Under the pieces are notes generated by a model. That model was not told the DNA's origin and made no database searches. It worked only from the letters and a program-made list of their open reading frames with translations. Below are positions 3,976 through 61,998 of a stretch of 64,000 nucleotides of DNA, in pieces (position 1 is the stretch's first letter; every line of letters starts with the position of its first letter). Made by a program: the position numbers and the translations under genes. Source of the stretch: a virus; IMG/VR virus record IMGVR_UViG_3300030693_000013. One strand, 5' to 3'.

Positions 3976-5327
3976 TGCTGCTCAGGACCGTCCAGCAAAC
4001 AGTGATCGACGTCACCCGGTACCACGTCAGCGTGGATGACTGGATGCCGGAAGACACTACGCTTGCCGGCGTTACTGCCACAGTAGATTACGGCACGGCG
4101 ATCGTGACCGGTATCCTGATCGACCGCGACAATCGTGGCTTTCACTTCTTCGTGAGCGAAGGCACTATTTTCGATCAGTTCAACATCATCTTCAGCCAGA
4201 CCGACAGCCGCGGCGGCGTGCGCTTCGATCACATGGCGTTCTCCATCGTGACGAACGGCGGCATCGTTCTTGCAGGTCCGGCGACGTCGACCCAGACACC
4301 GCTCGAATACATGCAGTCCATCCTCGGACCGACCGGATCAACCGGACCTACTGGCGTCGGCGGACCTGGGCCCACGGGCCCTCTCGGCGCGCCCACCGGC
4401 CCGACTGGCAGCACAGGACCACAGGGGTTGACGGGTTGGACGGGTTTGACGGGCTCTACCGGCCCGCAGGGATTGCAAGGGTTCACCGGCCCATCTGGCG
4501 GGACCGGATACACTGGCCCGCTAGGGACTGGACCAACCGGGGCGACCGGTGCTACAGGTCCGCTGGGAACAGGTCCAACCGGGCCGCTTGGTGGTCCCAC
4601 CGGGGGTGCTGGCGCTTCAGGTCCTACTGGCTCGACGGGTTATACCGGAGTGTCGGGGGCTACCGGAAGTTCAGGAGCAACCGGACCCACCGGGTCGCAG
4701 GGGCCATCGGGCTTCACCGGTTCGACCGGCCCAACAGGAGCATCAGGTGCAACAGGTCCCTCGGGTTTATCCCTCACAGGTCCGACCGGCCCCCTCGGGG
4801 GACCTACGGGCAGCAGTGGCCCTACGGGCAGTACAGGCTGTACGGGCGCATTCGGCACAGGGTCAACAGGCCAGCAAGGTCTGGCTGGCCCTCAAGGTAT
4901 TGCTGGACCCACCGGTGCAACCGGGCATCAAGGGGTCACTGGACCTGCTGGTTCGGCGTCGGGCGGTCGCGCGTATACTGCGATCTCTGGGGCCGTGGGC
5001 CTCTCGTCCGGTGTCTCTGCCGCCTCTACGGGGTTCTCCCTAGGCGCCGGCGCCTGGGATGTGCAGGCCGTTACGCAGTTCTCCACCGCGGCTGGTCAGT
5101 CCAAGGCCATCACGATCATGGGTGTCAGCAACACCCCTAGCGGCTTCGGGCTGGGGCTCGGCAGCTATGTGCAGCAGGAGATCGACGGCCTCGGCAACTC
5201 GGACGTCTATTCGTCACCGATGGTCCGTGTTAACGGTCCGATCACCGTCTGGTGCGTAAATTACGCGAACTTCGTCAATGCCGGCGTCACCGCAACCACT
5301 GTGTTGACCGCGCGGCCCACCTCGTGA
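3975..5327 (+). CDS. Collagen-like fibre with N-terminal adaptor-like domain
   Basis: Central G-X-T tract; N-terminus resembles 5335-5634, C-terminus ([11 protein letters not shown]) resembles that of 1855-3975. Confidence 0.8.
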
Positions 5328-5334
5328 GGACGTC

Positions 5335-5634
5335 ATGTTGCTTGGAACAAGGCTGCATACTGCCGGCAATCTGACCCGGTACATTGTCGACTACACCGAC
5401 TGGCTGCAGGAGGGCGCTACGCTTGCGCCTCTCTCGGGTACCGTGACGCTCGCGCCCCAGGCCGGCGTCACCGACGTGGTCATCACGGCGGTCACGATCA
5501 CGCCATCGAACCAGCTGCACTTCTTCATGACCGCGACCGTCGTTAACGAAACTTTTACGCTCGACGTGCAAGTTACCGACAGCCGCGGGGAAATCAAAAA
5601 TGACACCCTCGCCTTCAGAGTTATCCCTGCCTAA
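5335..5634 (+). CDS. Putative fibre adaptor protein
   Basis: RYIVDYTDWL motif, paralogous to the N-terminus of the upstream gene ([10 protein letters not shown]). Confidence 0.55.
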   Translation: MLLGTRLHTAGNLTRYIVDYTDWLQEGATLAPLSGTVTLAPQAGVTDVVITAVTITPSNQLHFFMTATVVNETFTLDVQVTDSRGEIKNDTLAFRVIPA

Positions 5635-5648
5635 CAGGAGTTACCCCA

Positions 5649-5873
5649 ATGCTTGATCTCCTCGCGTCATTCGCGTTCCCGCTTTCGATCGCCGCGACCT
5701 TCGTGGTCACTCTCGTCTTCTCGACGAAAATCAAGGACTTCTTCAGCGGCATTCCGGCCGACCTGCGCAAGGACCTGAACTCGATCGAGAGTGCCACGCT
5801 GTCGAAAGTCGCAGCCGCGCAGAAAGCCGTCGTGGCTTCTGTCGTGCCGCCCCCAGCCCCGGTTGCCAAATAA
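5649..5873 (+). CDS. Small membrane protein of the lysis region
   Basis: N-terminal hydrophobic helix, AGGAG RBS, directly upstream of the endolysin. Confidence 0.55.
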   Translation: MLDLLASFAFPLSIAATFVVTLVFSTKIKDFFSGIPADLRKDLNSIESATLSKVAAAQKAVVASVVPPPAPVAK

Positions 5874-5882
5874 GGTGCTGTC

Positions 5883-8673: not shown

Positions 8674-8680
8674 GGGTCTG

Positions 8681-11422
8681 ATGCCAGCTGCTCCAAGCCA
8701 TGAACCGCAGACTATGCCGGATGCTTTCAAGTTGGAAGCCTTCGGGGGTTCGCTGCCGGCGTGGGATGAGCATCTCCTGCCAGCTGGACAGGCTGCCAAG
8801 TCGGTAGATGCATACCTGTTCAGCGGTACGCTGACTGGCTGGCGCACGCCGACGCTGCTATACACGTTCAAGAATAGCGCGGCGCAATACGCCTATCGCA
8901 TCCCGAACCAGAGCCAGAGCATCGCTCAGGCATTCCTTGTCTTTGTCGCCAATCCGCTCGCCGCGGACACCGTGTTCCTGGGCGAAGAGACTTACACGTT
9001 CGTCAGCGCGATCACCTCGGCGTCGCCGGCGTACAGCATCCTGATCGGAGCCAACGCCTATGCCACAGCCACCAACTTCTTCGCCGCCCTCACCTTCGAC
9101 AACGGAGCAGGCACCAATGCAGGAACACTTTACTCATTGGGGACTGTGGCTAACCCTGCTGCTGATCAATCTGGGCCACCTACCGCAAACGTGCTTGGCA
9201 ATGGTCCGGCTCGCGTTCAGGTATTTGCTCCGTCCGTTGGAGCTGCCTTTAATGGCACGGTTGTCGCTGAGAGCACGGGTAACGCCCGAACCAGCTGGCA
9301 GTATCCCTTCGGCACTCCCACCGCTACCCTCAATGGCGGAACAAATGTCTCGTACGACACAGGAATTACTGCACCTTCAACTTGGATGGAATTCCTTGAT
9401 CCAGACACAGATGTTGTCCGCTCTCCAGTTGTGGATGACCAGTTCAACCGCTATTATTTCGCCTCCCCCTCCGAGCAGCCCCAGTACAACACCCTCGCCC
9501 GCATCCAAGCCGGCCTGCCTCCATGGCTCCTCGGCGTGCCCGCGCCCGGCTGCACTCCCGGGGTTGGCGTCACGGGTGGCGGCGACACTGCGACGCTCGG
9601 CTTCAACACCACCACTTCAGTAAACCAAGGCAATCCCGGCGCGAACATCGTCTACATGATCCCGGTCACGCCGACCGGCGACATGATCCTGAACGACGTC
9701 GGCTTGATGCCGCAGGCAACGAGCGCGACCGCGCAGTTCGCTGCCGTGCTCTATGCCGACAACAACGGGACCCCGGGCGACCTGATCAACGTGGGCGTCT
9801 CCGTCACCGGCTGCGCCGCCGGCGTGCAGGTGGAGAGCGCGTTCACGAACCCGACCGGGCTCTTGATGAACGTGCAGTACTGGATCGGCTTCATGACCGA
9901 TACGTCGATCCCGATCCAGCTGGCGAACGACACCGGCGCCACCGGCGTGGTCTGCTTGAACACCTACTCGAACGGGCCCCCGCCCGTGATCAACAACCTG
10001 ACGATCGGATACCCGACCCTTGAAGTGTGGGGGGATTGCACCGCATCGTCCGTACAGGAGGCTCGAGCCTATGTTTATACCTATGTTAGTGCATATGACG
10101 AAGAAGGTCCTCCGTCTCCTGCGACGATCGTAACTGGCTGGAGCAACGGAACGTGGACGGTTGATCTCTTCCAGCCACCACCGGATCAGCTCGGCGTGAA
10201 GCGCGATCTCGTCTCGATCAACATCTATCGTACCGTCACCGCGACCGGTGGATCGACAACGTATTTCTTCGTGGCGAACGTGCCGATCACGCAGGCGTCG
10301 TACACCGATATCATTCCGGACAGCACGGTCGTCGACAATCTTCAGCTGGTGTCGCAGCTCTACACCCCACCTCCGGAGGACTTGCAGGGCCTGATCACGA
10401 TGCCGAACGGCATGATCGTGGGCTGGCGCGCGAATGAACTCTGGTTCTGCCAGCCGTATCTGCCGCATGCGTGGCCATCGAGTTATGTGCTGACCTGCGA
10501 GTATCCGATCGTCGGGCTCGGCGTCAGCGGCAACACCGTCGTCGCCGCCACCGCGGGTGCGCCCTATATGGCGCAGGGTATCTCGCCGGCGACCATGACC
10601 GCCAACGCTGTCAACCATCCGGCGCCGTGCGTCTCGCGCGGTAGCGTCTTGGGTAATTCACAGGGCGTCTACTATGCGTCGCCGAACGGCTTGATGCTGG
10701 TTGACCAGACCGGCAACGTCACGAACACGACTGAAATCTGGATCACCCGGGAGAAGTGGCAGCAGCTCACCCCGCAGAAGAACCTTAGAAGTGTGTTCTT
10801 CGTATCTACTTATTTCGCCCTCGGCTGCACCCGCAACGGCGACAACAGTGTGGCCCAGGAGGGCTTCACCGTCGAGTTGAACACTGCCGATGCCAACAGC
10901 TTCACCATCTGGCCTCAGGCCGGCGGCCACAGGCTGGGCTTCAGCCAACTGACGTCGCCGAACGCGCTGGACGTGCTGAACGTGCGTATCGATCCGTGGA
11001 GCGGCGTCTGCCTCGTCACCTATGCCGGCAACATCTACCAGTACGACTTCACCCAGGCGAACCCGGTGATGCAGGCCTACGACTGGACGTCGAAGCTATA
11101 TCAGATGAAGTCGAAGAAGAACCTCGCCGCCTTCCGCGCGTGGTTTACTGTGCCAGTAAACACCCCGGCCCAGAATGCCCTTCCGAACACCGCGCCGCCG
11201 AGCGACCCCAGCTGGAACACCCTACAAGAGGGCCAGTACGCTATCATCAAGGTCTACGCCGGCGGGGTGCTTGTGACTTGCCGGGAGCTGCGATATCCTC
11301 AGCAGCTGTTCCGGATCGAGAGCGGCTTCAAAGCCGAGACGTGGCAGTTTGAAATCCTGGGGCGTGTACCGATCAGCAACATTCAGGTCGGAACGTCGGT
11401 CAAAGCAATGGCGAAAATCTAA
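8681..11422 (+). CDS. Podovirus tail/stabilisation (nozzle-like) protein
   Basis: AYVYTYVSAYDEEGPPSP and PPEDLQGLITMPNGMIVGWRANELWFCQPYLPHAWP motifs recalled from podovirus tail proteins. Confidence 0.7.
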   Translation: MPAAPSHEPQTMPDAFKLEAFGGSLPAWDEHLLPAGQAAKSVDAYLFSGTLTGWRTPTLLYTFKNSAAQYAYRIPNQSQSIAQAFLVFVANPLAADTVFLGEETYTFVSAITSASPAYSILIGANAYATATNFFAALTFDNGAGTNAGTLYSLGTVANPAADQSGPPTANVLGNGPARVQVFAPSVGAAFNGTVVAESTGNARTSWQYPFGTPTATLNGGTNVSYDTGITAPSTWMEFLDPDTDVVRSPVVDDQFNRYYFASPSEQPQYNTLARIQAGLPPWLLGVPAPGCTPGVGVTGGGDTATLGFNTTTSVNQGNPGANIVYMIPVTPTGDMILNDVGLMPQATSATAQFAAVLYADNNGTPGDLINVGVSVTGCAAGVQVESAFTNPTGLLMNVQYWIGFMTDTSIPIQLANDTGATGVVCLNTYSNGPPPVINNLTIGYPTLEVWGDCTASSVQEARAYVYTYVSAYDEEGPPSPATIVTGWSNGTWTVDLFQPPPDQLGVKRDLVSINIYRTVTATGGSTTYFFVANVPITQASYTDIIPDSTVVDNLQLVSQLYTPPPEDLQGLITMPNGMIVGWRANELWFCQPYLPHAWPSSYVLTCEYPIVGLGVSGNTVVAATAGAPYMAQGISPATMTANAVNHPAPCVSRGSVLGNSQGVYYASPNGLMLVDQTGNVTNTTEIWITREKWQQLTPQKNLRSVFFVSTYFALGCTRNGDNSVAQEGFTVELNTADANSFTIWPQAGGHRLGFSQLTSPNALDVLNVRIDPWSGVCLVTYAGNIYQYDFTQANPVMQAYDWTSKLYQMKSKKNLAAFRAWFTVPVNTPAQNALPNTAPPSDPSWNTLQEGQYAIIKVYAGGVLVTCRELRYPQQLFRIESGFKAETWQFEILGRVPISNIQVGTSVKAMAKI

Positions 11423-15181: not shown

Positions 15182-17364
15182 TGTCCATGGGCATTGACGA
15201 CGACAGCTACGATCCGTCCCAGGACCCCAACGGCGCCGGGCAGTCTCAGCCTGCGCCGCAAGGCTCAACTGCGCCTCAGCCGGACCCCAGCTCCATGCCG
15301 GGCTTCCAAGCCCAGGGCAACACCACCCCGAACGACAACTCGGGTGCAGCTCCTGTCATGGGCATCCCCGATGACAACTCTGGCGGTGCGCCGGTTACGC
15401 CGACCCCGCCGCAAGACAACACCAATCAGGCTGTCACCGGCCTGAACCAGATGGGTGCCAATCAGGAAGCCAACGCCGGCGGCCAGCCCCAGGCTGCCCC
15501 CGTCGATCCCGTGCAGAACCGCGCACCAGATCAAAGCACTGGCCCGCGCGGGCCGGCCAAACTCATTGCTTCCATGCTGATGGGTGATGGCGCTGCACCT
15601 TTGCAGACCCTCCTCGCCACGCAGAAGTCGGTCGACCCCAGCAACAGCCAGCCCCAGGGCAATCAAAATTTGATGGCGATCGATGCTGCCTTTTCCAAGG
15701 GTGGACTGAAGGAGGCGATGCCGCTCCTGCAGGCCAACCGTGTCGCGTTCAACGCCAAGCAGGCGTTCGCTTACACCGCGCTGCAAGGCATCCCGGGCAA
15801 AGGCCCCGATCTCAATGCTGCGATCAACGCGGCGAACGACGCTGAGCAGCATGTGCTAGATGGCTCGGTCGTGAAGTTCTCGCACGCCGGCAACGGCAAA
15901 ATTACTGCTACAGTAAGTTCGTCACTGCCGGGTATGGACACCACCGTCCCACTTACGGTAGACCAGTTCCGTCAGTATCTCGACGTCGGCAAGGATGGCC
16001 AATGGGACAAACTGCAGAGCGAAACAGTGCCGGGCGTGCTCCAACGGCTCGCGAAATCGCAGAGTTCGAGCGGCGATGCATTCGGGCCATCACCGACGCT
16101 TGGGCAGGACAGTATGTCCAATTCGAAATCGAGCGACCGGATGACCGCGCCCTCGAGCGACGATGGCGCCAGCGCTGGCGGCCGCCCCGCAGCTAAACGG
16201 ACAGGACAGGACAGCGAGTATTCGCAGCCTCATGCCCAGAGCCTTGATGCGTTCCCCGGCCCGAATGCTACGCGCTTCGCCGGCAACTCGAAAGCTGACG
16301 ATGCTATCGATGCCGATCGCCGCAAGCGCGGGCTCTATCCGGGAGATCAAGAAGACAAGAGCGGGATGCACGATAGCCACGGCCATTGGGTTGGTCCGAA
16401 GGCGTCCGCGGACCCGAACGGCTACGGCGAGCAGCTAGAAGCACGCTCCCGTGCGATCTTCCCTGACGTCGGCCATGAAGCCGAGCGGCAGCAGTGGATG
16501 GCTGCACAGAGCGGCGAAGGGGAAAAACTCAAGAACAACATCGACGTTGCCACTGAAAAAGGCCGCGTGCTGAACGAACGCGCCCAGACGACTGGTTCCT
16601 ACAAAGTCGAGCAGGAAGGCGTGAAGCAGGCTGGTGGCAATACCATCCAGCAAACCAAGAACCAAGGCGCCCAGGGTGTCGCGGACACGCGCGCCGGCGC
16701 CTATGAACATGCCTCTGACAACAAACTCGAGGGTACGAAGGACACCAATCAGAGCCGCAGCGGCGACGTGAAATACAAGACCGACGCTCGCAGCAACGAC
16801 GTGAACAACACCAACAACGCCCGCAGCGGTGACGTGCGCTACAAGTCCGACAACCAGCTGGAAGGCACCAAGTATGGTGCTGATACCCGCGAGAAGGGCG
16901 TCGAGTACAAAGCTGACACTGGGCTCGAGGGCACCGAATACAATGCCGACAGCCGCAACGACAGCTCCAAGTATGGGAGCGATCAGCGCCGCGCGACCGC
17001 GGGCGATGCCGCTACTGCGAAGGCCGCTCAGGCCGGACAGAAGGCTCAAGCGGAGATCGACCGACAGGCGCGGATCACCGGCGACAACTCCGATCGCAAC
17101 CAAGCCACCTACTGGCGCAACCGTGCGGCTGACGTCAACAACCCGATGACCCAGCAGGAGCTATCTCAGCAAAACGAATTTTTAGCACATTTGCGACAGA
17201 AGTCGGGTATCGGCAGCGGTCAAGGAGCCGCGCGTACGCAGGCGCCCAGTGTTCAATCTAGTGCTCCTGCTCCGCAGCCAAATCACGATGCCGCTGTGAA
17301 GTGGGCACGAGCTAATCCTCAGGACCCGCGATCGGCGCGGATTTTGCAGGCGAACGGGCAGTAA
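15181..17364 (+). CDS. Internal virion/ejection protein
   Basis: 727 aa with degenerate 11-aa repeats (KYKTDARSNDV, RYKSDNQLEGT, KYGADTREKGV, EYKADTGLEGT, EYNADSRNDSS). Confidence 0.6.
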   Translation: MSMGIDDDSYDPSQDPNGAGQSQPAPQGSTAPQPDPSSMPGFQAQGNTTPNDNSGAAPVMGIPDDNSGGAPVTPTPPQDNTNQAVTGLNQMGANQEANAGGQPQAAPVDPVQNRAPDQSTGPRGPAKLIASMLMGDGAAPLQTLLATQKSVDPSNSQPQGNQNLMAIDAAFSKGGLKEAMPLLQANRVAFNAKQAFAYTALQGIPGKGPDLNAAINAANDAEQHVLDGSVVKFSHAGNGKITATVSSSLPGMDTTVPLTVDQFRQYLDVGKDGQWDKLQSETVPGVLQRLAKSQSSSGDAFGPSPTLGQDSMSNSKSSDRMTAPSSDDGASAGGRPAAKRTGQDSEYSQPHAQSLDAFPGPNATRFAGNSKADDAIDADRRKRGLYPGDQEDKSGMHDSHGHWVGPKASADPNGYGEQLEARSRAIFPDVGHEAERQQWMAAQSGEGEKLKNNIDVATEKGRVLNERAQTTGSYKVEQEGVKQAGGNTIQQTKNQGAQGVADTRAGAYEHASDNKLEGTKDTNQSRSGDVKYKTDARSNDVNNTNNARSGDVRYKSDNQLEGTKYGADTREKGVEYKADTGLEGTEYNADSRNDSSKYGSDQRRATAGDAATAKAAQAGQKAQAEIDRQARITGDNSDRNQATYWRNRAADVNNPMTQQELSQQNEFLAHLRQKSGIGSGQGAARTQAPSVQSSAPAPQPNHDAAVKWARANPQDPRSARILQANGQ

Positions 17365-17365: not shown

Positions 17366-20300
17366 ATGGCGGACTTCGATCCGGACGAGTATCTCAGTCA
17401 GGTCGAACCAGCAGAACCATCGGACGACAGCGCCCCGCCGCAACAGGCTCAGGGCGACTTCGATCCCGATGCGTATCTTGCGGGACTGCCCGCTGACGAC
17501 AATCCGCAAGCGCCCCCGCCAGCCCCGGAAGGCATGGTCAAGACTGCAGCTCGTCGTGCCGTAGGGCGCGCCGGCGGTGTCATGGGCGGCCTCGTCGGCA
17601 TGGGTATGGGTGCAGCTGAAGGTGCGGGTGCTGGCTTGCCCGGTATCGTCGTCGGCGGTTTGATCGGCATGGGCATCGGCGCCTATGGCGGCCAGGGCAT
17701 TGAAGACGAGGCCAAAGAAGGCCTCGGTCTTGACGACAGCACCCAACAAGCTATCAATGCTGAGGCCAACCCGTGGACGTCTAACCTTACCGACGCTGCT
17801 CTGAACATCGCCGGTATGGGACCTGCTGCGGGCGCTGGCGTGGCCGTGCGCGCCGGTAGTGCGGCTCTCGGCGGTGTGTTGGAAGCCGGTGAAGAGGCAG
17901 CGTCTGGTGAAGACTTCAGCCCGACCAAGATCGCGCTTCAAGCGGCGACCAACGCCGTCTTCCCAGGCGTTAACAAGCTGGGTCAGAAGTTTGTTGGTGC
18001 CGGCGAACGTGCAAGTGCGCGCCTGGGCACTGTGCCGGGACGCCCGAACCAAGCACCCAATCCGGCCGCGGCCCAAGCGCACGCCGATGTGGGCGACACT
18101 TCAACCCAGACCGCGGTGGGCGACAGTTCTACTGCTGAGGAGCCTCCTGTCCGTACCGCTGAGACGATCGGCACCCCGCTCAGCCGGCCTACGAACTCGC
18201 AAGGTGAAGAGGCCACAGGCAAGGGCGGTGACAGCTCGTATATAAAAACGTCTCCATCTCAGGTCGATGGGGATACTGATATGTTGACAACTGGCGATAT
18301 GCCGCCAGACTGGGCGGCGGCGCTCGCGCCTGATCAAGTCGAAGTCCCCGGAATGCCGCGGCCCGAACCGCAGCAAACTAGTGCGCCTGAACAGCCACAA
18401 ACTAGTGCACCTGAACCCACGCCACAGGCAGAACCCAATGCGCAGAGTGCTCCACAACCAGCGCCAGAGCCCAAGCCAGCCGAAGCTGCGGCTCCAGCGC
18501 AGCCTGCGTTCGATCCGGACCAGTATCTGGCACAGCTCAAGCAACCCGTGGATGCCGGGTTCCCCAGGGTGGGCGAGCCTCTCGACCCGGGCGCAGGGGG
18601 TGATGGTAGCCCACGAGTTAGCCCGAATGGACGCAGACCTACTCTTACGCTTAAGTCAAATGCCCAAGAAGGTGCAGCGCCTGTCCGGAACGCTGCTCCG
18701 CGTGTCGATGAACCTGTAAGCACCAAGACCGGCAAAGCTGAACCGAACCCGAGCGATGCCCAGGTCGAGGCTGGCAACTATCAGAAGGCGCATGAGCGCG
18801 TGCTTGGGCGCGACGTCTCCTATGAAACCGAGAAGGGCGGCACCCGGCGCAGCAAGCCGGGCGAGCCACCGTGGGAAACCAACGACTTCCCGGCGGACTA
18901 CGGCCATGTGCTCGGGGTGAAGGGCGCGGACGGCGACAACCTTGACCTGTTCAACCTTCGTAACGGCGACAAGCATTACGTTATCGACCAGCGCAACCCG
19001 GAGACGGGCAAGTTCGATGAGCACAAGATCATGGCGAACGCGCGTGATCTCAACGATGCGCGTGACGCCTACACCAAGAGTTTCTCCGACGGCAGCGGCG
19101 TGTCGCGTATTCATGATATTACGCCGGCGACCGAGGGTGATCTGAAGGCGTGGATGGCGCTCGGCAACAAGAAGAAGCCCTACAGCAAGGTCCCATTCCC
19201 CCAGGCGGTGAAGCAGCCGAAGGTCGTTACTGCGGCAGTAGAAAAGCTGAAGGCGGCTGGTCAGCATGAGATCGCCGCCAAGATCATGGAGCTGCCGGAA
19301 GCCGCGCGGGTGATTGCCGCGAACAAGGCTGCGCGCGCTCTCATCAACAAGACTGGTGAGTTGAAGACCGGCGAGATCAAGAACATCCGCGTCCGCCAGC
19401 CAGCTGAGAGTGTGCCGGGTACCGACGTGCAGTCCAAGGGCCCGCGGGATGCCGCGCGCAAGTCCGGCGAGCTGAACGCACTTCGCGAAGTGTTCGACAG
19501 GCATACCCCTGTCAAGGACGAGGCCGACGCCGACACGATCGCGCGCGCCAAGGCCCTCGCCGAGGAGGCCAAGACCACCGGGCGTTATCCATTCGACATG
19601 CGCAAGAAGCAGGAGCCGGCGATGCTGGTTCGTGCCGCGCGAACACTGGCCAAGGACAAGGACGTCTCCGCGTTCCGCGCCACTGAACAACTCCTCCGAT
19701 CGGATGACCCGGCAGCGCACGAGACTGTGCGGCAGCAGCAGGCTGAGGCCAGTATCGGCCGCTCCCACCGCGCCGGCGACGAGGCTACCGATCGCGGCGA
19801 AGCGGCGATCGCTGAGCGCAACGCGGGCGTAAACACCGAAGAAGACGAGATGCATGATCGCATCGAGAGTAAACGCAATATTGAGAAGGCGTCTGATATC
19901 GACGATGACCTGAAGAAGACCCTCGACATGGACAAGCCGGCGGACCGCAAGGAGCTGGCCGCGCTGTTCAACAAGAAGGCCGAGCAGCAAGTCCCTGAGT
20001 GGAAGAAGGTGCGCGATGCCAAGCAGAAAGAGATCGCGGATCGGACGGCTGAGCTACTGGCTGCTCGCAAAGCTAAGGCTGGCGAGAGCGTTGATACACC
20101 TGTTCGTAAAATCAAGCTGAAGGACGGCACCGAAGTCACCCCCGAGGAGTTCGCCAAGATCGGCGAGGACAAGCCCCCTGTCACTCCCAAGGAGCGCTAT
20201 CAGGACGCCGCTGCCAAGTTCCTGGGCGACGAGAGCGCCTCCATGAACCCGAAGCAGATTTATGCCGACGCCAAGAAATTCCTGAAGAACACTGACAAGT

Positions 20301-22597: not shown

Positions 22598-22647
22598 TTC
22601 TTAAGCCGCAAGGGCTTTTACTGCCACAGTATCAAAAGGAGCGTTCC

Positions 22648-23898: not shown

Positions 23899-26800
23899 TT
23901 TTCAGTTCCTCTTCGAAGCCCATGTCCTCGGGTAGCTGTTCGGTAGGCCTGCCGGCCATTGCTGCGGCAGTAAGCCGCTCGCGGTCTGGCAATGGCGTGA
24001 ATGCCAGCATCATCTCCCAGAGCGGGGTGTCGTAGCCGATGGTCAGAACATGGCAGTTCTCACGGCCGCTGTCGACGATCGTCCCAGAACCGATCTTAAT
24101 CATCCGCGTCTGGATGTGATACATATCGTCGATTTTCTTCATCACCGCGGTCGAGTTGAGTTTGTGCGCTTTCAGGAATTTCTTGAATGATTGCTCAGCG
24201 ATGATCAGGGCGTTGTTGTCCTCGGCGAACCTGAACTCGAACCCGCCCTGGGTGTTGCGTTGCCCGTCGATGCCGTGGCGCACGAGCACTGGCTTGGCTG
24301 GTCGACCTTTGGTGTAGTTCATGTAGTTCGTCCACAGCCCATGACCGCCAGCTTGCATCTCCTTCAGCCAGCGGGTGAGCGCATCCTCGGAGTTGTCCAC
24401 CGATCCGCCCTTGGCGTAGGCATCGCGTTTGGCCTTGTTGTCGTGGTAGACGCCGATCAGGAACCGCTCGATATCGACTGGATCGACGTCCACTCCCAAG
24501 GTCTTGGCTTCCTGTGCAGCGATCGTGAGGGTGGCGATCGTGGCCAACCAGTAGCGTTCGGTCTGGCCCTTGCCGGGGCCACCGCAAAGGAACGTCTCCA
24601 GCTCGTTGGACTTGTCCAGCAGCTGCTGCTCGATACGCTTATGGTTCATCGCCAAGTGCTTGGCGTAGACCAGCCCCATGTGGCCGTAGTTATTGGAGAG
24701 TTTGTTGACCCGCGCCTCGGCATCGGCATTGAAAATATTCCCCACGCCGTCGGTGAGCGTCTTCAGATCACCGTACTCGAGCACGCGCATCACCATCGCC
24801 ACCGTGTTCTCGTCCTCGTCGCGCAGGAACTCCACAAGACTGCGGTTGGCGGTATACATCATCATGAGCTGGTACTCGCCGCTCTCCTGCATGCGCTGGC
24901 CGTCGAGCATGCGGGACTTCTCGGTGCCGCTGTCGATCTCCTGCATCATGGTGTTGAATTTCTGCAGGGTCTTTTCGCCCTTCTGTTCGTCCCAGTAGGC
25001 TGGGAGATGGCGGGTGGTCTTGAGCCGGCTACCGATGCTGTTCTCGGTGCCGCGCTGCCCGATCTTGGTGTTCTTTGGGTGGCCCCACACGGCGGCACCG
25101 ACGCTCGATGTGGTGGTCTTGCCGGCTCCGCTGTCGGTGCCATGGGCCGCGAGCACCGCGGTGTTCTTCCCGTTGACGCTTATGAGCGGAGAGGCGAAGG
25201 CCATGAGCAAGATGCAGTTCAGCTCTTGGCGCTTGCGATCGGTGACGGTCTTGCACGCGATCCACCATGGCTCTGGCTTGCCGGTGGCGCCGTACATTTT
25301 CTTGATCGTGATATCCGGGACGCTGGAGCGCTGCTCGGTGCCGTCATCCTTGAAGAGGGTGCCGCCGAACGCGAACCCGCGCCGATCTCCATCTTCGAAG
25401 AACCATCCGAATGGGACACTCTGTTGTGCCGATGCGAGTTCACGTAGTTTGCCGATGACGCTCAAGAAGAAGTCCTTTACAAACATAGGAGGGCAACCTG
25501 GGGCAATCAACACGCGCTTGCGCAGCAAGATACTCGATAGGTTCAACGAACCAATATCCCCCATGTCGAGCGATACGTCGTCGGCGAAGCCCTTGTCAAG
25601 CGTGACGTTGAAAACGATTTGCTCTCCCGGGTTTTTTTGGAGGCTGAAGTTGGAGAGCACAGCGTCGAAAATGATGATGTTCTTGATCGTTGGCGCGTCA
25701 CCTTCTTTTTTACCCTCTTTGGTGGTGACGCGGACGATGCGGTTCTTCTCGTCATATTCGAATGGGAATGGCAGCGGGATCAGCGTCTGCCCGGTCGGCA
25801 TTACTGTGGCAGCAATCTTCGGCCTTATATTGAGCGGTGACTTCCCGTCCTTGAACAGCGGGCACGACGTGCACACCGGGCTGCCAAGGCTGTTAAACGT
25901 GGCACACTTGGGATATCCAAACTTGCTGTTACGTCTTTCATCCATTTTGCGATCGAAGAACGCCTGTGCGTCATCCGGGGTGTAGTCCGCGTGTTTGTCC
26001 GATATTTGGTGCGCGATTTCATTGCCGCCCTCCATGAACGTGGTGCCCGCGATTAGCGCGTTCCACATTGGTTGCGATTGCCCGGCACCGCCTGATGCCA
26101 GCGTGTCACGGTATAGCTTGCAGCCTCCCTTGGTTTGATCTCGGAAGATGGGACGGGGGTCAACCAGATGGCCCCCGATCTGGAGCCCGTCCGCCAGTGT
26201 TTCCTTGAGCCCTTTCAAGCTGTCGAACTCGGCGGCCGGGCCCGCACGAAAAAGTGATGGGTCAACGCCGTCCGCGAACAACGTCTTGGGCGCCGCAGTG
26301 GCGCGCGCCGGCGTGGCGCTGTCGGTGTACTGCTTCAAAACCCCGAGCTGCGCCTCAAAATCGTATAGCTTCAGCGGGAGCGCGCCGAGCGTGGTCGGGC
26401 GCGGGGGGTTGGTCTTGTAATTGAGCGTGCCCGGCATGCGGAGGATGCGGACGATATCGGCGGTGCAGGAGACGTCGAACTTGATGCCCCGGGCAATCAA
26501 TCTGTTCTTGAGCCCGGTGGCGAATGGGCGCCACTCGTCTGGGGTCAGGGCTTTATCGCTGATCCAGTAGACGTGAGCGCCGCCGCCCGAGCCCACGATC
26601 GCGCTGGGGGATGGGATACCCTCGTCCTTGGCGAACTGGAAGATTGCCTTGATGCCGTCCTGTGGGGTGGCGTATTTATTGGGGTCGTTGGGGTCGACGT
26701 CAAGATCGACGAAGATCGACTTGCTGGACACTGTCGTCGCGGTGTCGCGCTTCAGGTAGGTCTTATTGTGCTTGGCGTCGGTGATCAACTGGCCCTGCTG

Positions 26801-37361: not shown

Positions 37362-37399
37362 ATCTCGTTCCTCCATTCGTGAGATTTGACTTTTGCTCC

Positions 37400-37455: not shown

Positions 37456-37474
37456 ATTTTTACTGCGGCGGTAA

Positions 37475-39484: not shown

Positions 39485-39524
39485 TTTCTCCTCCGTTGGT
39501 TACTGTGGCAGTAAGAATTGACCA

Positions 39525-40722: not shown

Positions 40723-40812
40723 GATCTCTCCTCTTTGTTGGGGCTGACGGCCTTCGTCAGGTGGCGTCTCACGCCACGATGGCGCCGCGTCGGGCACGGC
40801 ACCATTTCGGCC

Positions 40813-41649: not shown

Positions 41650-43695
41650 CTACCTTTCCCACACGTAGTGCGGATTGCTGAGAATGTAGCGGCCCACCAG
41701 CCGATCATGAGCAACAGCGGCGCTGGCTTTCATGATATCGAACAGTGTCCGCTCCATCGCGATGGCTTCCGCTTGTCGCGCATCGGCAGTGCCTGCCAAC
41801 GCCTTGCGGAAGTAGTTGTCGAAGATTTCCCGGTGCTCCGGGGTCAGATGCTTGCGTGTGCTCACTACGACCTCCCTGTTGGAATGGACAGCAGGATCAT
41901 CATCACGCCAAGCGTGACAATAAAGCCCTGCTGGTTGTTGAAGCCGATGTAGATCGCGAGAATGCTCGCGATCCTCACGGCGTTGTCTTGTAGGTGCCGA
42001 GACGCTTGCGCAGGCTGTCGCGGGCATTGATGATCTCAGGGCTCTTGTCCTGCGCAGTGCCGTGCGACGCACTGCCATCGATCAGCTTGTCAAGCCGCTT
42101 TACTGTGGCAGCAATGATATCGGCGGCGCTCATGTCGTCGGGCTGCGGGCGGAACAGGAACTGGTCCAGCTGGTCCTCAGGGATCAGGTGGTCGATCTTC
42201 ATTTGCGCCCTCGCATAGTTGAGGATGCAGTTCTGCGCGTCATAGAGCGTCTTGGCGACCGCAGGGTTGGCTTTGTGCTTGGCGCGGCGTGCCAGCAATT
42301 CGTTGGTGGTGTTGATCGGCTCGCCAACGCCACCCTTGGGCCATGCACCGAACCGCACCATGGCGCGGACACAGCTTGCTACCTTGCTGTGCTTCGGCGA
42401 TTTGGTATCGAGTGGCGCATTGCCGGTCGATGCCGTGACATACTCCATGGCGATCTTGCCGGCATCGTCAATGTCGGCGCCATGCTTGTTGTGCTTCAGG
42501 TCGAGCACACCCAGGTAGCTGCCCTCCAGTGTCTGGAGCATCAGCTTGGCTTGGGTATCCTTGCCCTTGCCGCTCGCTGTGCCCAGCTCACGGGCGATAG
42601 CGAGCACGTCGTCGAAACTTGGTTTGTTCGTCATATGCTTTCCTTTCAGTACGCTCTGGTGAAACGCCGCTCGGCTTTGGCGGCCGCTTGTTCGGCGCGT
42701 CGGGCACGCCGCCCGTCGCGCTGAATTTCCAGCCACACTGTATCGATCAGTGAGGCTAGCTTGTAGTTCGCATAGATCATGCCGCTCGGCGTGTGGCAAT
42801 TCCAGACGTAAGAAGCACTCGGAGGCAGATGGTTCAAGCGACTAAATTGATATCCGGGTGTCAACGCGATCTGCGCCATCATTACGCGCTGTGCGTCGCT
42901 CAACTCCGCAATGTCGATCTCTTCATCTGTCTGCATCAATCGTCTCATTATAGTAGCGCGCGATCATCATCAGCAGGACGCTCAGGCCGATCGCGAGCTG
43001 CGATACGTCGATCATATCATTGCGCGCTGTCCAATGTCTAATGGCGCCCCAGCCGACGAGCCGAAACTGCCAGCCGGCCATCACATACTGCGCCATCTGC
43101 ACGCGCTGCGCCTCGGTCAGCGCCTCAATGGTCGTTTCCTCAAGTGTGCGCAGCATCTGTCACCTTTTTTGCCCAGCTCATTGCCGTGGTCTTGCTGAAG
43201 AACCATGGGAAGCGCGATGGTCTGACCTGTTCATTCTCAGCGATATCCTTGGGCGGTAGCGCGATCCACAAGCCACGTTTGAGGTAGTGATCGTCGACGA
43301 TGGCACCGTGTATGCCCATCATCGGCAGTGACTGGCCCTCGAACACCCAGCCGCGGAGCAGCAGTGCCGCCTCCATTGTTCGCAGGTGGTTGTGCCTGCG
43401 ACACTTAACTCTTTTCGTTGGATAGCCCATCGTTGCCACCTTTTTCCTTGGCGATCGTGGTGGCGCGACGTTGCGCCACCTCCTGGAGGATCATCATTAC
43501 ACCATCGGCCATCAAGCCGCACGCCGCCATGGTGGTAATCAGCTCGCGACGCTCCGCTATCGCGTGGAGCGCCTTGCTGATCGCGCGGATTTGCGTGTTG
43601 TAGAACTCGCCATCCTCGAACGTCATTGGGGTAACACTTCGACTGCCCAGAGGATCAGCTGCAACAGCAGCCAATAGGTGATGGCAGCGCTGCAC
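41650..43695 (-). CDS. Early-region small hypothetical genes (41650-41865, 41975-42634, 42646-42948, 42923-43156, 43140-43439, 43405-43695)
   Basis: Densely packed co-oriented ORFs; several starts are uncertain. Confidence 0.45.
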
Positions 43696-44166: not shown

Positions 44167-44754
44167 TACCTTGCTCCCTTGTCACCCGCACGACGGCACC
44201 AAATTGTGTGCACCTTGTCAAGTTCTTCCTGCTGGATGCGCGCCCAAACGCTCTCGTTCACTTGGTGAACGGGCATGCACAGCTCCACTTGGGGCATTTG
44301 CTCGTCCTCATCGCTAATTACTGCGGCAGTAAACGCGATCTCGCGATCGACCACCGCAATGTTCAGCGGGTTGATCTCGCCGTGGTGCGCATGGTGCCAC
44401 ACCTCGAACAAGCGTCTTGCCACATGGGCAGAAGACGCCTCAATTGTCCTTGAAACTTCGCAGTGGCTCACTCGATACATGTTCATAGCGCACTTCTCCA
44501 TCTTCCAGGGTTGCAATTAGCGTGCCATTGTCGATAGCTTCCAGCACGCACTCAAGTTCGGGCCGATAGCCGCCATCGTTGGCAGCTTTCTGCTTGCGGT
44601 GACACACCCAGCACAGCTTCAGCCCGATCTCTTTCTTGTCGGCACACAATAGACAGAAGTTCAGCTCGCGATGTTTCGTGTGCCACGCCGTGATACGATT
44701 GGTGTCGCCGGCAAATGCCGTCGGGTAATTTTGCTTGTCCTGCTTCGTCGGCAT
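44166..44754 (-). CDS. Two early hypothetical genes (44166-44516, 44440-44754)
   Basis: 44440-44754 has CxxC..CxxC (CLLC, CWVC). Confidence 0.45.
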
Positions 44755-44935
44755 ATTCAGAATGCTCCTGTCATGAGGACCAGCGTGGTCCAGAGATAGC
44801 CAGCAAGAAACGCGCCAAGCGTCGCCTGTGTCATCGTTCTACCTTGCCAGTCATGGGGCTCTCCGATTACTGTGGCAGTAAAATAACGGAATTTAACGGG
44901 TTTGGCCCAAGTTGCTGCCGATGAAAATTAACTAA

Positions 44936-48262: not shown

Positions 48263-48297
48263 TTGACACTCGCCCGGCGGCAGTTACTGTGGCAGTA
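48263..48297 (+). promoter_or_regulatory. Sigma70-like promoter overlapped by the palindromic site
   Basis: TTGACA (48263-48268), 16-bp spacer, TACTGT -10-like element that is the left half of TACTGTGGCAGTA (48285-48297). Confidence 0.6.
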
Positions 48298-57724: not shown

Positions 57725-59733
57725 AACCATCTCTTTGCCTAAACATGATCGTCCGGAATGAGGGCGCGCGGATCGAACGCGCTCTCGTCTCCGCTCTCCC
57801 CTATGTCAAGGCCGTCGCCATTCTCGACACCGGGTCCACCGACGATACTGTCGCAGTAATCACCCGGGTCTGTGCCGAGTTCGATGTGCCGGTGATGATC
57901 GGTCACGGGACATTCAAAGACTTCTCCACGGCGCGCAACGACGCTTATGCACTCGCCCAGATGCACCGGAAGCACCAATCACTGCCTTGGTGCCAGTTCG
58001 CGCTCATGATGGACGCGGACATGCAGCTGGAAGTCACGGACCCCAAGGCCTTCGATTTGCTGCTCAACGCCAGCGTCACCGCGCTCAATCTGTGGCAGAC
58101 CGGCGGCTCCGTCACCTACGCGAACACCCGCATCATCAATCTCGACTGGCCAAAGAACCCCTACCGCGGGGTCACGCACGAATATATCGACGTGCCGACC
58201 AACGGTGTCGTCGAAGGCGCCCGGTTCATTGACCATGCCGATGGCGCCAATCGCACCGACAAACTCCCGCGCGACATTGCGTTGCTCGAGCAGGGCCTGA
58301 TTGACGAGCCGAACAACAGCCGCTACATGTTTTATCTCGGGAACACGTACAAGGATAGCAACCGTCCGGATGACGCGATCCGGATGTATCGGCAGCACAT
58401 CGCGCTGGGTGCCTGGGACGAAGAGGCCTACTTCGCGCAGTTCATGATTGCCGAGTGCGAGCGCGACATGGGGGACACCGATGCCTACGTCGCCTCAATG
58501 CTCGAGGCCTACAACATGCGCCCACGCCGCGCCGAGCCACTCCACTCGCTCGCTATGCACTTCCGAGAAAAAGATAAGCCACATGTCGCCCTCACCTTCG
58601 CAAAACGCGCTCTCGCAATCCCACGGCCAAATGATTTCCTTTTCGTCAACGATTTTGTTTATTCTCATGGTGCTCGCTACGAGTATTCGATCGCGGGATT
58701 TTACGACGAGACAGAGCGCCCAGGCACGTTTCCGATTACGGACGCTCTCGCGCTTGATCCAGCGTGCCCAGAAAACCTCCGATGGAGCTGCAAATCGAAC
58801 CTCTTCTGGCATCTCGAGCCACTGAGCCGATACTGCACGTCGTTCGCGCCGAAGCGCCTCGAGCTGCCGCTGCCAGACGGCTACACCGCGATGAACCCAT
58901 CGGTGGAGGAGTGCAACGGCAAAATCCTCTGCAACATTCGCGCGGTCAACTACGTCATGGACGACATGGGCCGCTACATCATCAAAAACAGTGGCAAGAC
59001 CTGTCACGAAGACACCATCGACACACGGAACTTCCTCGTGAAGTTAGGCGAAGACCTGCGCATCAAGCACCGTGCCGAAATCCTGTGGGACCGTCCCGAA
59101 GCCAAGTACGACATGGTGCTCGGGCTCGAGGACATGCGGCTCTACCGACACAAGGGCGACCTGTGTTATATCGCCTGCGCGCGCGAGCAGTGTGTGACCG
59201 GGATGCCCCAGCAAATCCGCGGGCGCCTCGTCCGCGACAGCGCCAACGACACGTTCGTGCACACGCGAGACATGGAAATCCTGACCGACGAGCACTCGAT
59301 CGAGAAGAACTGGATGCCGATCGGCACCGGACACGACTTCGTGTATCGACTTGATCGCATCCGTCATCAGGATGGCACCGAGACGAAAAAAACGAGCAGC
59401 CGATATGTCGGAGAGATCAGCGGTGGATCGCAGGCTATTCCTTTCAAGGGAGGCTACATGGCCGTGGTCCATGAGGCTTCCGTCAACCCGAACAGCGGCA
59501 AGCGGACTTACTGGCATCGCTTTGCGTGGTTCACCAAGGAAATGGAGTTCAAGCGCCTCAGCATCCCCTTCGTCTTCTTCGATCGACAGATCGAGTTCTG
59601 CACCGGGCTCTGCTACCACCCCAATCACAAAGATTTGATCCTGTCCTTTGGTGTCCGCGACGCGGAAGCCTGGGTCGCAACTGTGGCCGTCGAAGAGGTG
59701 GCCCGAATGACGTACAAATTCCATGAGAACTAA
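57721..59733 (+). CDS. GT2 glycosyltransferase + TPR + C-terminal beta-propeller (GH130-like) domain
   Basis: GTG start with GGAGG; LNMIVRNE, LDTGSTD, DAD and GVTHEY motifs; TPR helices; MNPSV, GLEDMRLY, EKNWMP, SGGS and IEFCTGL motifs. Confidence 0.85.
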   Translation: MKPSLCLNMIVRNEGARIERALVSALPYVKAVAILDTGSTDDTVAVITRVCAEFDVPVMIGHGTFKDFSTARNDAYALAQMHRKHQSLPWCQFALMMDADMQLEVTDPKAFDLLLNASVTALNLWQTGGSVTYANTRIINLDWPKNPYRGVTHEYIDVPTNGVVEGARFIDHADGANRTDKLPRDIALLEQGLIDEPNNSRYMFYLGNTYKDSNRPDDAIRMYRQHIALGAWDEEAYFAQFMIAECERDMGDTDAYVASMLEAYNMRPRRAEPLHSLAMHFREKDKPHVALTFAKRALAIPRPNDFLFVNDFVYSHGARYEYSIAGFYDETERPGTFPITDALALDPACPENLRWSCKSNLFWHLEPLSRYCTSFAPKRLELPLPDGYTAMNPSVEECNGKILCNIRAVNYVMDDMGRYIIKNSGKTCHEDTIDTRNFLVKLGEDLRIKHRAEILWDRPEAKYDMVLGLEDMRLYRHKGDLCYIACAREQCVTGMPQQIRGRLVRDSANDTFVHTRDMEILTDEHSIEKNWMPIGTGHDFVYRLDRIRHQDGTETKKTSSRYVGEISGGSQAIPFKGGYMAVVHEASVNPNSGKRTYWHRFAWFTKEMEFKRLSIPFVFFDRQIEFCTGLCYHPNHKDLILSFGVRDAEAWVATVAVEEVARMTYKFHEN

Positions 59734-60379
59734 GATCGTCACGGCCTATGTACCGATCCCGAACCACCCGCGCACCGCCGCCGAATATGGCGAGCTGGGA
59801 GAAAAACTCAGCGGCGTCCCGGTGCGGAAGAAGGCTTTCTACCAGCACCCCGCGGACCTGTGGATGATGAAATACATCAACGGGCTTCCGTTCGTGCCGG
59901 CGTCGTCGAAGCACGACAACCCGAGCAAAAACACGCTCGCCTACCACGCTGTCAACCACCAGAAGACGTCATGGCTGGTCCAGGCCTCGAACGAGGACCC
60001 GGAGGCCGACGTGCTCGTGTGGGTCGACTACGGCATCTTCCGACTGCCGGGGGTCAACAATCAGGCCATCTATGAGTTCATGGAGAAGGTCGATGACAAA
60101 GCCATCTACGCGCCCGGCTGCTGGGACCGACCTCAGGTGGTTGAGAGCGCTTATCCTTGTTGGCGGTTCTGCGGATCGATGCTCGCCGTCCCGAAAAAAC
60201 AGGTCGATGCCTTCGACTACGCTTGCCGCGTTGCTGCGCGCAAACACATTTCTTCGACGAAGAACGTCGAGTGGGAAGTCAACACCTGGGCGCGCGTCGA
60301 AGCACAGGGCAAGCTGAAATTCAAGTGGTATAAGGCTGATCACGACGTCAGCATGTTCAACAATCTGGAGTTAGTGTAA
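59723..60379 (+). CDS. HtrL/WlaTC-like putative glycosyltransferase
   Basis: KIVTAY...KTSWL...WVDYGI...WRFCGSML pattern. Confidence 0.65.
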   Translation: MRTKIVTAYVPIPNHPRTAAEYGELGEKLSGVPVRKKAFYQHPADLWMMKYINGLPFVPASSKHDNPSKNTLAYHAVNHQKTSWLVQASNEDPEADVLVWVDYGIFRLPGVNNQAIYEFMEKVDDKAIYAPGCWDRPQVVESAYPCWRFCGSMLAVPKKQVDAFDYACRVAARKHISSTKNVEWEVNTWARVEAQGKLKFKWYKADHDVSMFNNLELV

Positions 60380-60403
60380 TGATCCTGTATCTGGAGAACC
60401 ATC

Positions 60404-60985
60404 ATGAGTGTTGAGTATTTAGAGAGCCTGTTTACACGCTTTGGCACTGATAAAGGGACGTGGGGCTACACGGCCTATTATGCCACGGCGATGGAAGCAC
60501 GTCGCTTTGACGTCAAGGCAGTCCTCGAGGTAGGCATCTGCGGCTATCGCGACATTCCGAACAACGTAGTCGGCGCCAGCCTCTTCGTGTGGCGGGAGTA
60601 TTTCCCCAACGCTGAGATTTACGGCATCGACAACGACAGCCGGTTCATCTTCAATGACCAGCCGCGCATCCACACCGCGCTGGCCGACGCCTACGACGTG
60701 GCGTCTTTGTCAATGGCCTTGATCGACTTCAATGTCGGCCGGCCGTTCGACATGATCGTCGACGATGCCGTCCACGACCCCGAGCCGCAGCTCCATCTGG
60801 CGAACATGCTGACCCCGGCGCTGGCCAAGGGTGGCCGCTATTTCATTGAGGAAGCCTGCCCCTACAAGCTGAACGAGCCCTACGAGAAATGGCTCAGCCA
60901 CCGGATCAACCTCGCTGGCGAGATCACGGGTATTCACGCTTGCGTGACCCCGAAGCCCGAGGAGCTGATGATCCTTATTAAGTAG
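60404..60985 (+). CDS. Class I SAM-dependent (sugar O-)methyltransferase
   Basis: GTDK...Y, VLEVGI, GASL..WREYFPNAEIYGID, IVDDAVH, GGRYFIEE. Confidence 0.85.
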   Translation: MSVEYLESLFTRFGTDKGTWGYTAYYATAMEARRFDVKAVLEVGICGYRDIPNNVVGASLFVWREYFPNAEIYGIDNDSRFIFNDQPRIHTALADAYDVASLSMALIDFNVGRPFDMIVDDAVHDPEPQLHLANMLTPALAKGGRYFIEEACPYKLNEPYEKWLSHRINLAGEITGIHACVTPKPEELMILIK

Positions 60986-60992
60986 TTTTTAA
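60978..60992. promoter_or_regulatory. CtrA-type box TTAA-N7-TTAA
   Basis: TTAAGTAGTTTTTAA upstream of the head-assembly operon. Confidence 0.6.
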
Positions 60993-61044
60993 GCAGAAAG
61001 CCTCAGGGTCCCTCCATCAGCTAATCCTAGCGATGGAGGGCCAC

Positions 61045-61998
61045 ATGGCCGCGTTTTTGAAGAAGAATGAGAAAGCCGCCGACTTCGCCAAGGGTGGCAC
61101 CACCCCGATGTTCGGCAAGGGCGATCGCACCACGACCGCTCCGAGCGATGCCGCTGGCACCGCGACCCCCGGCGAGACGTACAAGGACCCCGAAAATAGC
61201 GGGGACAAGTTCGCCAAGGGCGGCTCGACCAAGATGTTCGGCTACGAAGGCGCCGTTCCCGCGTCCGCTGGTCAAACCGGCGCGCGCTAATGGCCGCGAT
61301 CAGCCCCATGGGCCCCGCGATCCGGAAGATGGCGCCGAAGATCGGCAACGTCTCCAAGGTCGGTGAAACGGGCGCAGCTCCGAAGCCCCGCGGTATTCCC
61401 AAAAAGAATACCCGGGACTACGGCAAAGGCGTGCCGCAAGTGGCCTCCCCCGCATCACCCCCTGCCGATCCCTTCGGCATGACGACTGGCTCTGCGAACG
61501 AGCTGGGAGGCATCTGATGTTCAAGAAGCACATGACACCGCTCAAGGTCGGGGGCTCTAAGCCCAGCGCCCTCGACAACACGCCCGACAAGGGCTCCAGC
61601 CAGCGCGAGCTGCCGGGAGCAGCCACCGGTGGTGGACCCGCATCATTCCAGTCCTACGGCAAAGCAACCCCAATGGCTCAGCCGGCCCCAGCGAACACCG
61701 ACCTTGGGTCGGGAAGCTGGTCGGGCGACGGGATCGCATGACGCCGACAGCCGTACTCGCCCAATGTGCCCTTCGCCTTCGCGCTGCCAGCCCGAAGGAC
61801 TGGGACGCTTTTGTCGAAGTTTTCGACGCCTATTCAACCGAAATTACTGTGGCAGTAGTGAGCGCGCCACAGGATCAAGTCCTCGTCGCTCAAGGAAAAG
61901 CCCAGGCGTTTCTGCACCTGCTTGACACGTTCAGATACTGCCAGCTTCGCGCCCAACCGCCAGCTAAACCGCCCTCTGCGCCTGTAACAGGCCCATAG
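61045..61998 (+). CDS. Four small head-region genes (61045-61290, 61290-61517, 61517-61741, 61738-61998)
   Basis: Translationally coupled; the first has two FAKGG...MFG repeats. Confidence 0.6.

Follow-up and report, generated by a model that had tools for sequence, protein, structure and literature searches.

A short palindrome, TACTG-N3-CAGTA, is dispersed over the 64,000-nucleotide window analysed here, which comes from the virus record IMGVR_UViG_3300030693_000013 and covers most of the roughly 66-kb genome of an uncultured tailed soil phage that was recovered from peat metagenomes. The initial annotation had proposed that selection keeps this palindrome at the level of the DNA, and this is now strongly supported for a whole phage family by sequence shuffles, by natural variants of the motif and by orthologous codons. 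It is moderately probable that a dimeric DNA-binding protein encoded by the phage docks at these sites, and this protein would co-evolve with them and act along the whole genome instead of at promoters. Of particular interest in this family are the concerted synonymous switches of specificity, the relatives without the motif, and the association of the motif with a gene block.

The same 14 perfect and 6 one-mismatch copies that had been reported between positions 4073 and 61857 were recovered, at the same coordinates and including those in the intergenic gaps at 22619, 33691, 37461, 39501 and 44868 (Table 1); they were assigned to no strand. The early estimate of well under one copy per 64 kb agrees with dinucleotide shuffles, which give 0.02 perfect copies and 0.56 within one mismatch, against 14 and 20 observed. 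When synonymous codons were permuted inside each of 71 genes in 500 runs, a shuffle that preserves the codons, 0.018 perfect and 1.23 near copies were expected in coding DNA, and 9 and 14 were observed. Every copy placed in a likely gene (a long open reading frame, ORF, that is GC-rich at the third position of its codons) has the phase xxT ACT GNN NCA GTA, on either strand, so the single reading frame noticed at first holds throughout. The codons involved are indeed rare, as GTA makes up 8% of the valine, ACT 16% of the threonine and GCA 13% of the alanine codons. The CC(A/G) core is found as well: after the sites were oriented, the three central positions are C in 17/20, C in 18/20 and a purine in 19/20 copies, and the flanks lengthen the palindrome to tTACTG...CAGTAa. 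While 14 copies are coding, the 6 non-coding ones lie within 9.6% of the window DNA (P = 0.009), and the leftward replication arm, 33% of the window, contains 11 of the 20 (P = 0.035). A second apparent motif, CCGGT-N3-ACCGG (38 matches versus 3 expected), was rejected, as it reflects the coding repeats of collagen-like Gly-X-Thr stretches at 333-573, 4333-4924 and 55654-57106; collagen artefacts of this type also lead the palindrome counts in several relatives.

For the comparison with related phages, a portal search gave 158 IMG/VR relatives, 80 of which were kept (G001 to G019 and L001 in the following are relatives of the window; RHph_TM27A is a cultured Rhizobium phage, MN988461). The T-type motif of the window occurs in none of these 80. 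Most of them have TTACCG-N3-CGGTAA (C type), one clade has TTACGG-N3-CCGTAA (G type), and another has TTACAG-N3-CTGTAA (A type). In whole genomes, perfect sites number 18 in G001 (G type), 21 in G004 and 18 in a second C-type genome, and 6 in G003 (A type), and a control pattern that was read backwards gave zero sites in the G-, C- and A-type whole genomes. Total copies amount to 20-25 per genome. The 154 distinct sites share the architecture of two 7-bp inverted arms with a 3-bp spacer, and the family consensus is G-TTACNG-YSR-CN'GTAA-C, with the outer G/C present in 81/154. Each genome keeps to one variant that is matched in both arms, apart from a few mixed-arm sites with one arm of each type, the window copy at 37461 among them. 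In the portal tree the C type is paraphyletic and the T, G and A types are each nested inside C lineages, from which it follows that C is ancestral and that three independent switches took place; the nearest relative of the window, L001, is of the C type and has a portal that is 87% identical.

More distantly, RHph_TM27A (L081 and L082 in our set) has 46 copies of GTTACCT-N3/4-AGGTAAC. This motif was not found in Pseudomonas phage KPP25, and neither GTTAC-N7-GTAAC nor any other dispersed palindrome was found in the complete relatives G006-G010 or in KPP25. Two relatives without the motif have GGTTGACA-N2-TGTCAACC palindromes, which were rejected as a dispersed motif, being confined to the early region and resembling ordinary operators. 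These form a TTGAC-N4-GTCAA palindrome in 3-4 copies (L079:1208-4330 with GGTTGACA-N2-TGTCAACC, and L080:1252-5895 in a looser form), all upstream of the orthologue of the regulator gene 48320-48946, and they may be the operators of that regulator.

When the relatives were mapped onto the window via protein alignments, sites of different genome types were found in the same codons or junctions at the window positions 4079, 15909, 19234, 25808, 30922, 31887, 33697, 36421, 37467, 39507 and 61851. At the site in the DNA polymerase gene, five genomes all encode T-T-T-V: the window with ATT ACT ACG ACA GTA (T type), G001 with GTT ACG ACC ACC GTA (G type), G004 with CTT ACC ACC ACG GTA (C type), and the two genomes without the motif with CAT ACA ACC ACA GTT (G006) and CAC ACG ACA ACG GTC (G007). 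Relatives that lack the motif retain the peptide of the site while using other codons. Likewise, the site at 61845 reads ATT ACT GTG GCA GTA in the window, GTT ACG GTG GCC GTA in G001 and GTT ACC GTG GCG GTA in G004. The positions N and N' of the consensus are third codon positions in both arms, and the switches are therefore synonymous and have no cost for the protein. Codons and junctions are shared and the variants differ at wobble bases, and such wobble-position variants at orthologous codons are direct evidence for selection on the DNA and for a single specificity that reads both arms at all sites of a genome. This is a clear case in which a DNA signal overrides codon preference at the same codons, in proteins that are only 30-60% identical, and this matters for phage annotation, codon-usage analyses and engineering.

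Within the window family, the spacing of the arms is strict. Together with the uniformity inside each genome and the symmetric switches between genomes, this makes a protein reader the simplest explanation, and the sequence pattern favours recognition of the duplex by a symmetric protein along the whole genome. The initial annotation had inferred a phage protein that coats the entire genome; a sequence-specific protein reader does fit best, and it may serve repression, roadblocking, organisation, segregation or protection. Overlaps with promoter-like or terminator-like sequences are not in excess, the sole coincidence being a terminator-like hairpin beside 39501. A -10 element that had been assigned to the copy at 48285 is weak: TTGACA-N16-TACTGT is present, but TACTGT matches TATAAT at 3/6 positions and a promoter scan made no call there. 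The sites are spaced more evenly than random in four non-independent genomes (coefficient of variation 0.65-0.73 versus 0.96, P 0.016-0.09).

A search for the gene of the reader compared 11 motif-bearing relatives of the window family and RHph_TM27A with genomes that lack the motif. The motif strictly co-occurs with a contiguous block of genes beside the polymerase, 36648-42799 (Table 1). The ATPase gene and 41975-42799 are missing in one of the 11 relatives, G017, the contig of which starts inside the block. In four genomes without the motif (G006, G007, G009 and G016), the replication module is kept and the whole block is absent, and G016 is a sister of motif-bearing lineages. The DUF2201 gene is present in 12/12 motif-bearing genomes, in 0/5 complete and 0/3 partial relatives without the motif, and not in KPP25; its PHROG label "HNH endonuclease" rests on a DUF2201 family. 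As for the two larger unannotated genes, 36648-37418 encodes about 237 amino acids from Met-20 and is fast-evolving, with 24-38% identity to relatives, and its AlphaFold2 model has a predicted local distance difference test score (pLDDT) of 87 and matched no solved fold, nor did the protein have a Pfam family or a PDB sequence match; no homology was detectable to the gene at the equivalent position in RHph_TM27A. The product of 41975-42799 has 219 amino acids from the ATG at codon 56, is all-helical and conserved out to RHph_TM27A, and has 12 homologues and a model with pLDDT 83, but no Pfam family, PDB sequence match or fold match.

The only recognisable sequence-specific DNA-binding protein of the window is encoded by 48320-48946 (HTH_23 and an OmpR-type winged helix). 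It had been suggested at first as a candidate reader, which does not hold, since orthologues are present in relatives without the motif and the recognition helix is identical in C-, G- and A-type genomes. The gene 50227-51459 was also rejected, being absent from the motif-bearing G011 and present in G019, which lacks the motif. This gene, just upstream of the large terminase gene, encodes a calcineurin-like nuclease that resembles the small subunit of archaeal PolD, and its nearest homologues in isolates are in Bacteroides phages.

Several observations weigh against a dimeric reader from this block. Apart from 48320-48946, no known DNA-binding domain was found in the approximately 70 window proteins scanned, both unannotated candidates have confident models with no recognisable fold, and no protein stood out in a scan for residues that track the motif type. 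The association with the block could reflect linkage and not function. The N4-like phage Ab09 has the order ATPase-x-VWA-x-polymerase and yet no dispersed palindrome, which rules out that the ATPase/VWA pair suffices for the motif; should the link be functional, the better candidates are thus the unannotated genes of the block. Finally, the arms in RHph_TM27A are separated by 7 bases at 12 sites and by 8 bases at 34 sites, a combination that a rigid dimer should reject. The gene order itself (AAA ATPase, small gene or genes, DUF2201 VWA-metallopeptidase, one gene, DNA polymerase A; 34672-40797) recurs in Ab09 as ORF30-35 (L121:13580-20804), and otherwise the two phage groups have little in common.

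If a dimeric reader is nevertheless assumed, a symmetric dimer would dock on the double-stranded 7-N3-7 dyad of the family consensus, in which the half-site centres are one helical turn apart. Selection would keep about 20 copies per 65 kb, which in genes would be written as T-[AV]-[AT]-V-like peptides via rare synonymous codons and elsewhere would be placed in short intergenic gaps. The one base pair that the reader contacts in each half-site would have switched on at least three occasions, from C to T, to G and to A, each time followed by every site in the genome, which would be cheap as the variable base is the third codon position in both arms. The reader would be encoded in the block 36648-42799, most likely by 36648-37418 or 41975-42799, and would perhaps be a partner of the AAA ATPase and the VWA-metallopeptidase. 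The sites would then serve a genome-wide transaction that sets the phage DNA apart, be it replication-linked marking, organisation or roadblocking, and not promoter control. A more far-reaching and rather unlikely version of this idea is that the palindromes and an unannotated reader gene of the ATPase/VWA block form an undescribed genome-marking system of lytic phages, in which about 20 evenly placed "self" marks would let a replication-linked machine separate its own DNA from that of the host or of co-infecting relatives, and in which selection for a private specificity would drive the one-base switches that are absorbed at wobble positions. Dispersed palindromes recur in phage genomes, and for those that are independent of promoters no reader or function is known. 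The window family gives much leverage here, with four natural specificity variants, close relatives without the motif, only a few genes that co-occur with it, and the cultured RHph_TM27A with its 46 sites.

Of the other explanations, the one that survives best, although unlikely, is that a site-specific nickase or staggered endonuclease of the phage would cut at these sites and leave localised single-strand interruptions in the virion DNA, similar to those of phages tf, T5 and phiKMV. Phage tf has 14 localised nicks per 46 kb at TACT/GTGAC, a consensus that shares TACTGTG with the commonest form of the window site, TACTGTGGC, and related LUZ24-like phages have a nick variant that differs by one base, TACTATGAC, and lies at similar places in the genome, the joint consensus being TACT/RTGMC (PMC3517423). 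The window sites resemble these nick sites in density, dispersal, core sequence, positional conservation and the one-base switch between related lineages. However, every known nick site is asymmetric and restricted to one strand, whereas the window site is self-complementary apart from the centre, and if such a palindrome was nicked, both strands would be cut five bases apart and the genome would be broken. Also, no nickase candidate was identified among the window proteins.

It is decidedly unlikely that the sites fold into hairpins or cruciforms when the DNA is single-stranded or supercoiled, and that these would signal priming or loading to the primase-helicase or be hotspots of recombination. 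A stem of 6-7 bp with a 3-nucleotide loop could form, the arms change together, and the even spacing and the higher density in the replication arm would fit as well; the main point for a hairpin is the variable arm spacing in RHph_TM27A, where identical arms enclose 3- and 4-nucleotide loops. For pairing alone, however, it is not needed that one base pair is used at all sites of a genome, and complementarity beyond the conserved G..C flank shows no meaningful excess. The mismatches of most deviant sites break the stem on both strands (of the 35 stem mismatches in sense-strand reading, 20 are unpairable on either strand, and the others comprise 9 G-U and 6 A-C), and the relatives without the motif share the primase-helicase and the polymerase.

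It is improbable that the polymerase-side block modifies the DNA in a sequence-specific manner at these sites, with the variable position or an adjacent one being modified. The window does encode an Nmad5 protein, a dATP/dGTP diphosphohydrolase-like domain and a DUF4406 protein, and the model of 36648-37418 has a weak match in the AlphaFold database to a "nucleotide modification associated domain" cluster (E 0.04, TM 0.42-0.44). Against this, there is no obvious rationale for keeping and positioning about 20 targets, Nmad5 is found in just two motif-bearing genomes, the window and G004, and a variable position that takes all four bases is hard to fit to one chemistry. Nmad5 is described in the literature as an anti-Tmn factor, and no link to DNA sites was found in the literature on DUF2201 and the Nmad domains.

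Quite improbable is a reader from the host (a nucleoid, cell-cycle or SOS factor), with the variants reflecting different hosts. The gammaproteobacterial LexA box is CTGT-N8-ACAG and the CtrA box is TTAA-N7-TTAA. The T-type half-sites TACTG/CAGTA equal the LexA half-sites of gammaproteobacteria, TTAC-N7-GTAA resembles the CtrA box, and a phage reader was not found in the protein scans. However, the arms are 3 bases apart here and 10 in the LexA box, the relatives use TACCG, TACGG or TACAG, and the strongest constraint falls on the inner positions, to which CtrA is indifferent. Moreover, the specificity differs between close relatives with portals that are 80-87% identical, and the motif follows a phage gene block.

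Very improbable, finally, are RNA stem-loops that control translation or processing, although intergenic copies are followed, after a few bases, by ribosome-binding sites and about 9 sites in RHph_TM27A end 1-4 nucleotides before annotated starts, where the AGG of the right arm often doubles as the Shine-Dalgarno sequence (near the starts of predicted ORFs, 49% of random positions scored too, which makes this control uninformative): the copies are mostly deep inside genes, G-U pairs are not favoured among the sense-strand mismatches, and the loop faces either way relative to transcription, being C-rich on the sense strand at 54 sites and G-rich at 27. The excess of C-rich loops inside genes fits codon preference; in the intergenic copies of the window the orientation is evenly split, and the centre occurs both ways within one arm.

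The closest known precedent, by analogy, for what would be protein docking sites in the window family is a 17-bp dyad repeat of Cluster O mycobacteriophages, TGTTCGG-N3-CCGAACA, which occurs in 34 copies and is unexplained, with an unknown reader (Cresawn et al. 2015, PMC4351075). Both systems have the 7-N3-7 form with 20-34 copies per lytic-looking genome of 65-70 kb, copies in genes and gaps with a higher density in the leftward non-structural arm, an asymmetric central triplet without meaningful orientation, positions conserved in relatives, and no link to promoters. They differ in sequence and phage lineage, and neither concerted synonymous switches nor relatives without the motif nor a co-occurring gene block have been reported for Cluster O.

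In Cluster A mycobacteriophages (L5, Bxb1), which are temperate, the stoperators are asymmetric, follow the direction of transcription, and are the binding sites of the immunity repressor. With about 20-30 dispersed sites per genome and a consensus that shifts between lineages (in their case with the reader), they resemble the window family, but the analogy drawn initially fails on symmetry, orientation and lifestyle: the window sites are palindromic and unoriented, and no integrase or repressor family was found in the approximately 70 window proteins scanned, with some small ORFs outside the scan. The phage looks lytic. Cluster A stoperators are also discussed in the Cluster O paper (PMC4351075). 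The matS analogy fails too, matS belonging to a host system with a different site.

A similar picture of short dispersed palindromes is given by KorB operators of plasmid RK2 and other ParB-type sites, which are palindromes of 13-16 bp with about 12 copies per 60-kb replicon and are bound by one global protein. The KorB replicon is, however, a plasmid and the window element a lytic-looking phage, and no ParB-family Pfam domain was detected among the scanned window proteins, a scan that left aside some small ORFs and the structural genes. Hairpin promoters of the N4 type depend on a virion RNA polymerase, whereas the 1743-amino-acid virion protein of the window (gene 17366-22597) matches DarB-like and InPase families and no RNA polymerase. 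The SOS box of LexA differs in its spacing, as already mentioned.

Table 1. Positions of the palindrome copies in the window and of the genes in the block beside the polymerase
Feature	Position	Strand	Form or annotation	Location and occurrence
site	4073..4085		perfect, centre CCA	inside collagen-like fibre gene 3975-5327; G-type site in G001, same codons
site	11146..11158		perfect, centre TGC	inside internal virion protein gene 8645-11422; not shared with relatives, in which this stretch encodes F-x-[ILV]-P-P
site	15903..15915		perfect, centre CTA	inside 15181-17364; C-type sites in G004 and G005, same codons
site	19228..19240		perfect, centre CGG	inside 1743-amino-acid virion protein gene; G005, same codons
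site	22619..22631		perfect	intergenic, 21 nucleotides past stop of 17366-22597; G004 site at equivalent junction
site	23960..23972		one mismatch (TGCTG)	near 3' end of primase-helicase gene
site	25802..25814		one mismatch (CAGCA)	inside primase-helicase gene 23888-27037; G004 and G005 same codons, G001 two codons off
site	27226..27238		perfect	inside 27049-28221; G001 and G004 sites at most about 15 nucleotides from mapped position
site	30916..30928		one mismatch	junction of 30915-31100 and 30512-30913, TAA of the site doubles as stop codon of upstream gene; also in G001, G004
site	31881..31893		perfect	inside 31779-32099; equivalent in G001
site	33691..33703		perfect	intergenic, 33709-34224 / 33336-33665; junction site also in G001, G004, G005
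site	36415..36427		one mismatch (TAGTA)	inside DNA polymerase A gene 34672-36639
site	37461..37473		TACTG CGG CGGTA, one arm T type, other arm ancestral C type	intergenic, beside stop of 37475-38782; junction common to G001, G004, G005
site	39501..39513		perfect	intergenic, ATPase gene / 39197-39484; junction site also in G004, G005
site	42101..42113		one mismatch	inside unannotated gene 41975-42799
site	44319..44331		perfect	inside 44166-44516
site	44868..44880		perfect	divergent region between leftward and rightward arms
site	48285..48297		perfect	23 nucleotides upstream of 48320-48946; overlaps weak -10-like TACTGT
site	57846..57858		perfect, centre TCG	inside glycosyltransferase gene 57640-59733
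site	61845..61857		perfect	inside 61738-61998
gene	36648..37418	-	unannotated	11/11 motif-bearing relatives; not detected in RHph_TM27A; none in motif-less genomes
gene	37475..38782	-	DUF2201 metallopeptidase and VWA-like protein (Pfam)	11/11 relatives and RHph_TM27A
gene	38782..39207	-	small, unannotated	9/11 motif-bearing relatives; not detected in RHph_TM27A; none in motif-less genomes
gene	39556..40797	-	AAA-type ATPase (phrog_1297)	10/11 relatives and RHph_TM27A; none in motif-less genomes
gene	41975..42799	-	unannotated	10/11 relatives and RHph_TM27A; none in motif-less genomes

The genome of the window is organised in three arms. A rightward arm of virion genes is followed by the leftward replication arm, with genes for a primase-helicase, an SNF2 helicase, PD-(D/E)XK and VRR-NUC-like nucleases, DNA polymerase A, the AAA ATPase and the DUF2201 VWA-metallopeptidase, and by a second rightward arm with terminase, portal, glycosylation and capsid genes. 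A near-identity search with the first 20 kb of the window matched nothing among isolated phages; the closest isolates are Rhizobium phages of the RHph_TM27A group, with a polymerase that is 40% identical, and KPP25 is more remote. The nucleotide-pool and modification-type genes at 33709-34675 and 41041-41646 (dATP/dGTP diphosphohydrolase N-terminal domain, DUF4406, Nmad5) hint at non-canonical DNA or anti-defence functions. Early in the leftward arm, at 43753-44166, a stand-alone homologue of the C-terminal domain of the RNA polymerase alpha subunit is encoded (Pfam E 7e-14). In G010, a relative without the motif and with a different replication module, there are two arrays of about 20 units each on opposite strands (L117:10762-14181 and L118:476-1572), with a period of 18/36 bp and units of the form GAGAGCACCA-N8-GAGCGAGCCA-N8..., which may be coding repeats or binding arrays.

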